Positions 6,443 to 8,022 of a DNA stretch of 64,000 nt are shown piece by piece; position 1 is the stretch's first letter; each line of letters starts with the position of its first letter. Under the pieces are notes generated by a model. It was not told where the DNA came from and did not search any database. It saw only the letters and a program-made list of their open reading frames with translations. The DNA comes from Escherichia phage Ec_O157kw, in the sequence record PV857777.1; one strand, given 5' to 3'. The translations under genes and the position numbers were made by a program.

Positions 6443-7183
6443 ATGATTAATGACTCTATGACAGTTGAAGAAATCCGTTTTTATTTGGGAACTGCATTAA
6501 AGGAAAAAGATTTCGTAGTTGATAAAACTGGCGTTAAAACTATTGAAATTATTGGCGCATCATTTGTAGCAGATGAACCCTTTATTTTTGGCGCTCTTAA
6601 TGATGATTACATTCAGCGTGAACTTGAATGGTACAAGTCTCAAAGTCTGTTTGTTAAAGATATTCCAGGTGAAACACCGAAGATTTGGCAACAAGTAGCA
6701 TCTTCTAAAGGTGAAATTAACTCGAATTATGGTTGGGCTATCTGGTCAGAAGATAACTATGCTCAATATGACATGTGTTTAGCTGAACTTGGTCAAAATC
6801 CTGATTCTCGACGTGGTATCATGATTTATACTCGTCCATCCATGCAGTTTGACTATAATAAAGATGGTATGTCAGATTTCATGTGTACGAATACCGTACA
6901 GTATCTGATTCGTGACAAGAAAGTCAATGCAGTAGTAAGCATGCGCTCAAATGACGTGGTCTTCGGATTCCGTAATGATTATGCATGGCAAAAATACGTA
7001 TTAGATAAATTAGTATCTGATTTGAATGCAGGCGATTCAACTCGTCAGTATAAAGCAGGTTCTATTATATGGAATGTTGGAAGTCTTCATGTATATTCTC
7101 GTCATTTTTACTTGGTTGATCATTGGTGGAATACTGGCGAAACTCATATTGTGAAAAAAGATTATAACGGTGAGTGGAAATGA
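6443..7183 (+). CDS. 42: dCMP hydroxymethylase gp42
   Basis: 246 aa; near-identity to recalled T4 gp42 sequence (SMTVEEIR...IWNVGSLHVYSRHFYLVDHWW). Confidence 0.95.
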   Translation: MINDSMTVEEIRFYLGTALKEKDFVVDKTGVKTIEIIGASFVADEPFIFGALNDDYIQRELEWYKSQSLFVKDIPGETPKIWQQVASSKGEINSNYGWAIWSEDNYAQYDMCLAELGQNPDSRRGIMIYTRPSMQFDYNKDGMSDFMCTNTVQYLIRDKKVNAVVSMRSNDVVFGFRNDYAWQKYVLDKLVSDLNAGDSTRQYKAGSIIWNVGSLHVYSRHFYLVDHWWNTGETHIVKKDYNGEWK

Positions 7184-8022
7184 TTCAATTCGTAATTCCA
7201 AGTTATCAGCGGGTTGGGGCAGTTTCTGCCCTTGATATGTTTCCGACTGATTATGAACCCCATATTGTAGTGCGTGAACATGAAGAAAAAGCTTATTATG
7301 ATGCCTATGGGTCTAGAGCTAAAATTATAACTATTCCTGATGATGTAAACGGAATTGCCGGTACTCGTAAAGCAATTACTGATATGTATGCAGGCCAACG
7401 AATCTGGATGATTGACGATGATACTACTATTCGTATGAGTTCAATGCGAAAAAGAGATGACCGTCGTTGTGTGGATAAAGTCAATCAATTGACTCATGAA
7501 CAGTTCTATGAATTGATTCAATACGTCGAAGATGCCATGGATTGCGGGTATTATCACGGTCATGCTCGCCTACCAATTTTTAAAATTACTTCATCTTGGG
7601 GTAATTATCGTGAAAATTCATATGGATTCACGAATACATGGTATGACCTTGGAAAACTTACGACAGAACAAATTGGGTATGGAAAAATTGATTTGTGCGA
7701 AGATATGTATGCATTTCTCAATTTAATTAATCAAGGTTATCCGCATTTGGCCTTGTTCAAATATCTGGTTGTATCAGGTAAAGCGCAAGCTCCTGGTGGG
7801 TGTAGTTCAATTCGTAGTAATTCTAAACATAATAGAGCGCTTGAGCAAATCAATAGAGAGTTTCCAGAGCAAGCTCGTTGGAAAACGTCGAATATTGAAA
7901 AACGAAAATCGTTGGGTGAAGAAGACGAGCCATTAAAGGTTCTTCGCATGTGTGTTTCGCGTAAAGAAAAATCAGAAGCATTTCATAAGTTTAATGCTAT
8001 TCATCCAATAGCAGTTGATTAA
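7180..8022 (+). CDS. putative HMC-DNA glycosyltransferase, GT-A fold with DxD motif (T2/T6 beta-alpha-gt-like), at the T4 beta-gt locus
   Basis: ATG overlaps gene 42 stop (ATGA); 280 aa; IWMIDDDTTI motif; does not match T4 beta-gt as I recall it. Confidence 0.55.
   Translation: MIQFVIPSYQRVGAVSALDMFPTDYEPHIVVREHEEKAYYDAYGSRAKIITIPDDVNGIAGTRKAITDMYAGQRIWMIDDDTTIRMSSMRKRDDRRCVDKVNQLTHEQFYELIQYVEDAMDCGYYHGHARLPIFKITSSWGNYRENSYGFTNTWYDLGKLTTEQIGYGKIDLCEDMYAFLNLINQGYPHLALFKYLVVSGKAQAPGGCSSIRSNSKHNRALEQINREFPEQARWKTSNIEKRKSLGEEDEPLKVLRMCVSRKEKSEAFHKFNAIHPIAVD

Follow-up and report, generated by a model that had tools for sequence, protein, structure and literature searches.

Phages T2 and T6 contain 5-hydroxymethylcytosine (hmC) bearing a gentiobiosyl (beta-1,6-glucosyl-alpha-glucosyl) group, made by the product of the ba-gt gene and amounting to ~5% in T2 and ~72% in T6 (PMC6024577; bioRxiv 10.64898/2026.02.25.707755). 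Both phages keep ~25% of bare hmC (bioRxiv 10.64898/2026.02.25.707755). Deletion of ba-gt in T6 yields a phage with alpha-glucosyl-hmC only, kept at ~75%, the DNA of which becomes a substrate of the Brig1 glycosylase and of BapA (PMC11078745; bioRxiv 10.64898/2026.02.25.707755). Ten Durham Tequatroviruses, which possess alpha-gt and a TAGT gene syntenic with T4 beta-gt, have been analyzed by HPLC/MS: alpha-gentiobiosyl-methyl-dC represents ~40-67% of their cytosines, no beta-glucosyl form was detected, and bare hmC amounts to about one fifth to one third (PMC13390438). In three Durham Tequatroviruses, hmC, its alpha-glucosyl form and its gentiobiosyl form occur at a ratio of 1:2:2 (PMC13390438). 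The hmC sugar pattern decides which host defences see the phage DNA: Brig1 targets alpha-glucosyl-hmC and T6 DNA resists it in vitro, BapA leaves the glucose on gentiobiosyl-hmC in place, and GmrSD/BrxU cleave DNA with any of the forms (bioRxiv 10.64898/2026.02.25.707755; PMC13390438; PMC13216743; PMC11078745). An AlphaFold3 model places the T6 protein within the GT-A superfamily, where GT2 is its sister, and the T2/T6 enzyme is named TAGT (TET-associated glycosyltransferase, PF20691) (PMC13216743). The pair alpha-gt and TAGT is common, while genomes that combine alpha-gt with beta-gt number only 6 of 753 (PMC13216743).

In T4, the annotated gene order is 42, b-gt, segA, uvsX. The beta-gt enzyme of T4 uses the same donor as the ba-gt enzyme and produces the same beta stereochemistry; it has a GT-B fold (PDB 1JG7). 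It is 351 amino-acids long, belongs to a different fold class from the ba-gt protein and accepts hmC itself instead of alpha-glucosyl-hmC. The two genes occupy the same slot, downstream of gene 42. The original cloning of ba-gt is said to have been published by Winkler and Rueger in 1993, in Nucleic Acids Res.

The slot between gene 42 and uvsX

The DNA analyzed here, hereafter the window, is a stretch of 64,000 nucleotides from Escherichia phage Ec_O157kw (PV857777.1). The features discussed below are the following, with coordinates in the window:

6443..7183, + strand: gene 42, dCMP hydroxymethylase, which makes the hmC that the sugars attach to (Pfam Thymidylat_synt)
7166..8111, no strand: segment without nucleotide homology to T4 (blastn comparison with the T4 locus)
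7180..7183, + strand: ATGA overlap between the ba-gt start and the gene 42 TGA stop (direct sequence reading)
7180..8022, + strand: coding sequence of ba-gt, or ggt (beta-glucosyl-HMC-alpha-glucosyltransferase, TAGT; ORF, homology, PF20691, PHROG 842)
7210..7212, + strand: CGG codon of Arg-11, part of the N-terminal motif IPSYQR; all 49 family members have Arg here, every T2 record His
7414..7422, + strand: DDD (residues 79-81), a DxD-type motif following the predicted strand 74-78 (sequence, conservation in 49 of 49, model)
7702..7704, + strand: D175 (segment DLCEDMY), which may serve as the catalytic base in an inverting GT-A mechanism (present in 43 of 49 members; GT2-like fold)
8100..9281, + strand: uvsX recombinase, the downstream flank of ba-gt (Pfam T4_UVSX_C and RecA)

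The ba-gt ORF is intact, with 280 codons followed by a TAA at 8020-8022 (843 nt in all). A program-made ORF list placed its start at GTG 7174 (282 aa); ATG 7180 is the annotated start in phages PhiZZ6, T2 and RB32, the annotations of which also display the 4-nt overlap with gene 42. The original prediction had placed a 280-residue protein at 7180-8022 between gene 42 and uvsX, and its coordinates, start, stop and both flanks have been verified. The overlap of the gene 42 stop with the ba-gt start suggests translational coupling of the two genes, and thus that ba-gt is probably co-expressed with gene 42.

The comparison with T4 by blastn delimits the slot sharply. The first homologous stretch takes in imm.1, imm and gene 42 and stops at position 7165, the block 5650-7165 displaying 95% nucleotide identity; the next begins at 8112 inside uvsX, with 89% identity from there on. 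In between, 946 bp harboring ba-gt stand in place of ~1.9 kb in T4 (positions 2557-4497 of the T4 locus, L002), which comprise beta-gt and segA, a GIY-YIG homing endonuclease gene, both absent from the window. Sequences with at least 90% nucleotide identity to ba-gt occur in 474 phage records, nearly all of them Tequatrovirus of Escherichia, Shigella, Yersinia, Salmonella and Citrobacter, as compared to 29 records of the phage collection, mostly T4 and its close derivatives, for a T4-type beta-gt. These counts indicate that the T4 arrangement is the exception and the ba-gt arrangement the norm. The 474 records, together with a DDD motif conserved in 49 of 49 family members, also establish that ba-gt is not a chance ORF.

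Promoters and terminators were searched between 5200 and 9400. The promoter scan returned 12 promoter-like sites, fewer than the 17.8 found in shuffled sequences, and the terminator scan 3 sites, at the chance level of 2.3. To note, a perfect TATAAT is present at 8041-8046, upstream of uvsX (intergenic 8020-8050), with AATGCCTAAA ~18 nt before it. This TATAAT is missing from the list of the sigma-70 scan because it has no -35 match; the combination resembles a T4 MotA-dependent middle promoter, which would serve uvsX. The terminator scan also flagged a 7-bp GC-rich hairpin, GGGGCAG TTT CTGCCCT, at 7216-7232 (+ strand), 36 nt into the ba-gt coding sequence, in a region where such sites are at chance level.

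Family membership and predicted fold

The ba-gt DNA has a 100% identical counterpart in Citrobacter phage PhiZZ6, where the annotation reads 'beta-glucosyl-HMC-alpha-glucosyl-transferase'; outside this gene, the two genomes share 95-98% nucleotide identity within the window. End to end, the ba-gt product shows 99% identity with the enzymes of T2 and T6 (277 of 280 residues for T2), has the same length of 280 residues as these and is encoded at the same locus, with gene 42 upstream and uvsX downstream. Its match to PHROG 842 ('beta-glucosyl-HMC-alpha-glucosyltransferase') extends over residues 1-275 with an E-value of 6e-89, and its match to the Pfam TAGT family PF20691 scores 39.1 bits for a cutoff of 27.5, over profile positions 2-205 of 205. 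In the Pfam match only residues 3-207 are aligned, which leaves the last ~70 residues beyond the model. The protein shares with the TAGT family its invariant residues R11, R63 and D79-81, and with the T6 enzyme the DDD, R11 and R63 motifs; it differs from the family in its partners, which here are the hm-dCMP synthesis of gene 42 and alpha-gt instead of a TET/JBP dioxygenase. The residues that distinguish it from its two closest relatives are few: R11H, H106R and P251S in T2, and Y40N and D55G with respect to T6. At each of these five sites the window residue is that of the other phage, T2 or T6. The H106R change is not specific to T2, being common to phages RB32 and AdolfPortmann.

No such kinship is found with the T4 enzyme. 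The best BLASTP match of the ba-gt protein to T4 beta-gt has an E-value of 0.28 over 10 residues, no beta-gt Pfam family is returned for it at E-values up to 10, no GT-B structure figures among the top Foldseek matches, and the 64-kb window contains no T4 beta-gt homologue. The lack of resemblance to the GT-B beta-gt of T4, noticed in the original prediction, thus holds both in BLASTP and in fold class, and its proposal by position of a gentiobiosyl transferase of the T2/T6 type is supported by the 99% identity, PHROG 842, PF20691 and the shared locus. We are therefore highly confident that this ORF is the T2/T6-type beta-glucosyl-HMC-alpha-glucosyltransferase, in identity as well as in reaction. 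The identity of the gene is already known, as it is named in public annotations. Since the phenotype of a deletion of the T6 orthologue and the fold class of the latter have also been published, no new biology is involved: the T6 deletion genetics, the GT-A assignment of the T6 protein and the LC-MS identification of gentiobiosyl-hmC in Tequatroviruses with ba-gt at the same locus are all in print.

Public labels for ba-gt are inconsistent and include 'b-gt', 'glucosyl transferase' and 'hypothetical protein'. In phages RB55 and RB59, a T4-type beta-gt is mislabelled 'beta-glucosyl-HMC-alpha-glucosyl-transferase'; in the T2 record AP018813, alpha-gt is labelled 'N-acetylmuramoyl-L-alanine amidase' and ba-gt 'hypothetical protein'. 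The RefSeq name for gene 42 is 'thymidylate synthase'.

A sequence search of the PDB with the ba-gt protein returned chance matches only (E-values above 1), and no sequence-related solved structure. An AlphaFold2 model was obtained with a mean pLDDT of 92.4 and a pTM of 0.90. It predicts a single Rossmann-like alpha/beta/alpha nucleotide-sugar-binding domain. The top Foldseek matches in the PDB are GT-A enzymes: WrtF, AvpGT, the chondroitin polymerase K4CP, TarS and TarP, with E-values down to 5e-7 and TM-scores of ~0.5; sugar-nucleotidyltransferases, structurally related to the GT-A fold, rank next. Compared to GT2-type GT-A enzymes (WrtF, AvpGT, K4CP, TarS/TarP and SpsA), the ba-gt protein retains only 8-15% sequence identity, and its acceptor would be a sugar on duplex DNA in place of a glycan, a lipid or a teichoic acid.

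Conservation was evaluated on 49 family members gathered from two database searches. R11, R63, D79, D80 and D81 are invariant (49/49), R212 is found in 47 and D175 in 43 members. The DDD belongs to the segment IWMIDDDTTI (residues 75-84), and its location in a beta-strand context, anticipated from the sequence, is reproduced by the model, in which strand 74-78 runs directly into residues 79-81. The model and the invariant DDD support a GT-A, GT2-like enzyme with its DxD at the classical position, in agreement with the GT-A (DxD) type initially proposed. The DDD would bind Mn2+ and the diphosphate of the UDP-sugar, and D175 may be the catalytic base. GT2-type enzymes invert the configuration of the transferred sugar, which would fit a beta linkage formed from UDP-alpha-glucose.

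Proposed reaction and extent of gentiobiosylation

By analogy with the published proteins that are 99% identical, from which the reaction and phenotypes are taken, the pathway would proceed as follows. Gene 42 would make hm-dCMP, hmC would be incorporated by replication, and alpha-gt would put an alpha-glucose on the 5-hydroxymethylcytosine of the newly replicated phage DNA. The ba-gt enzyme, small and soluble, would then add a second glucose from host UDP-glucose, beta-1,6 onto the alpha-glucose and with inversion, yielding gentiobiosyl-hmC. For the protein of this phage, metal-dependent catalysis and glucose transfer are predicted activities. An alpha-gt was not found by tblastn in the 64-kb window; in PhiZZ6, T2 and T6 this gene is located between genes 47 and 55, at a place that lies ~4.4 kb past the left end of the window.

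The presence of the gene alone does not set the extent of the modification, since T2 has ba-gt yet ~5% gentiobiosyl-hmC. A high gentiobiosyl fraction is nonetheless expected here because the allele retains all the invariant residues, among them the R11 that is missing in T2. We infer that the virion DNA of this phage is probably largely gentiobiosylated, in a T6-like or Durham-like manner. Recognizing ba-gt leads to the prediction of a T6-like instead of a T4-like modification, which is useful for annotation with regard to host range and phage therapy.

The alternative that ba-gt works poorly, as in T2, leaving the DNA mostly alpha-monoglucosylated with a few percent of gentiobiosyl-hmC, appears unlikely. 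It draws on the T2 gene, 99% identical and associated with ~5% gentiobiosyl-hmC as against ~72% in T6, and on the intermediate 1:2:2 ratio of the three Durham phages (PMC13390438). However, the window allele has neither the R11H nor the P251S change of T2, nor H106R, and Arg is present at position 11 in all 49 family members. The allele is also intact, with no stop and no deletion in the DDD, and all ten of the Durham Tequatroviruses with alpha-gt and ba-gt reach roughly 40-67% of gentiobiosyl (PMC13390438).

A change of specificity is highly improbable. The enzyme would in this case act on another acceptor or with another donor than the T6 enzyme, for instance on bare hmC or with a different nucleotide sugar; some solitary TAGT homologues may do so. 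Such homologues, without alpha-gt or beta-gt, are found in 288 of 753 phage genomes (PMC13216743), which suggests that specificities vary within the family, and no alpha-gt is seen in the 64-kb window. Yet PMC13216743 presents the solitary TAGTs as distant relatives, whereas the ba-gt protein is 99% identical to those of T6 and T2, all differences falling at non-conserved positions, and the closest genomes (PhiZZ6, T2 and T6) all have alpha-gt.

That ba-gt might be a non-homologous replacement of T4 beta-gt, beta-monoglucosylating the hmC left free by alpha-gt, is barely credible: it does occupy exactly the T4 beta-gt slot and is often labelled 'b-gt' in databases, but in phages with ba-gt and without beta-gt, beta-glucosyl-methyl-dC is absent and bare hmC persists at about one fifth to one third (PMC13390438), ~25% in T2 and T6, and the ~75% alpha-glucosyl-hmC of the T6 deletion mutant is as expected of a second-sugar enzyme. 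An analogue of T4 beta-gt acting on bare hmC is rejected on the published nucleoside data (PMC13390438).

The T2 codon 11 allele and lesions in T6 stocks

Arg-11 belongs to IPSYQR, a segment found where the first strand ends. In GT2 enzymes, this position is that of the nucleotide-binding 'IPxYN' motif. A megablast of 61 nt around this codon in GenBank phages revealed that His (CAT, where the others have CGN) is confined to the T2 records and to phage SV76. It is present in all T2 records (loci L003, positions 5093-5095 on the - strand, L006 and L007), and SV76 is the same as T2 in its 61-nt sequence and in genome length. The nearest other alleles, those of RB32 and AdolfPortmann, differ from T2 within the 61 nt by the single change CAT to CGT. 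Pattern scans of IMG/VR gave 0 contigs with His-11 and 5 with Arg-11, numbers too small to be of use.

The low gentiobiosyl content of T2 may hence reflect a hypomorphic R11H allele. More broadly, natural ba-gt alleles could set the level of gentiobiosylation, with R11H alone causing the 65-year-old difference between T2 (~5%) and T6 (~72%); this is a tentative proposal, leaning to the doubtful side, and may already be known. If it is true, the window allele, with its R11, is of the fully active type. The R11H allele of T2 is the one item of this analysis that might repay an experiment.

The two T6 stocks that have been sequenced display different lesions in ba-gt. In AP018814 (locus L004, positions 4135-4974, - strand), a 3-nt deletion reduces the invariant DDD to DD. 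In MH550421 (locus L005, positions 4138-4980, - strand), an amber codon is found at position 10 (CAG to TAG), and the annotated CDS begins at a later ATG. The unlike lesions of these two stocks may be due either to stock drift or to the gene being dispensable or counter-selected on laboratory hosts.

Elsewhere in the window, right after gene 56 (dCTPase), an ORF of 283 amino-acids at 14866-15717 (+ strand) matches the homing-endonuclease family PHROG 655 (E-value of 5e-33). It exhibits a weak match to the HNH family PHROG 12434, and its C-terminus is like residues 166-214 of T4 SegA. As the segment ~14852-15700 does not align with PhiZZ6, this ORF is probably a mobile insertion.
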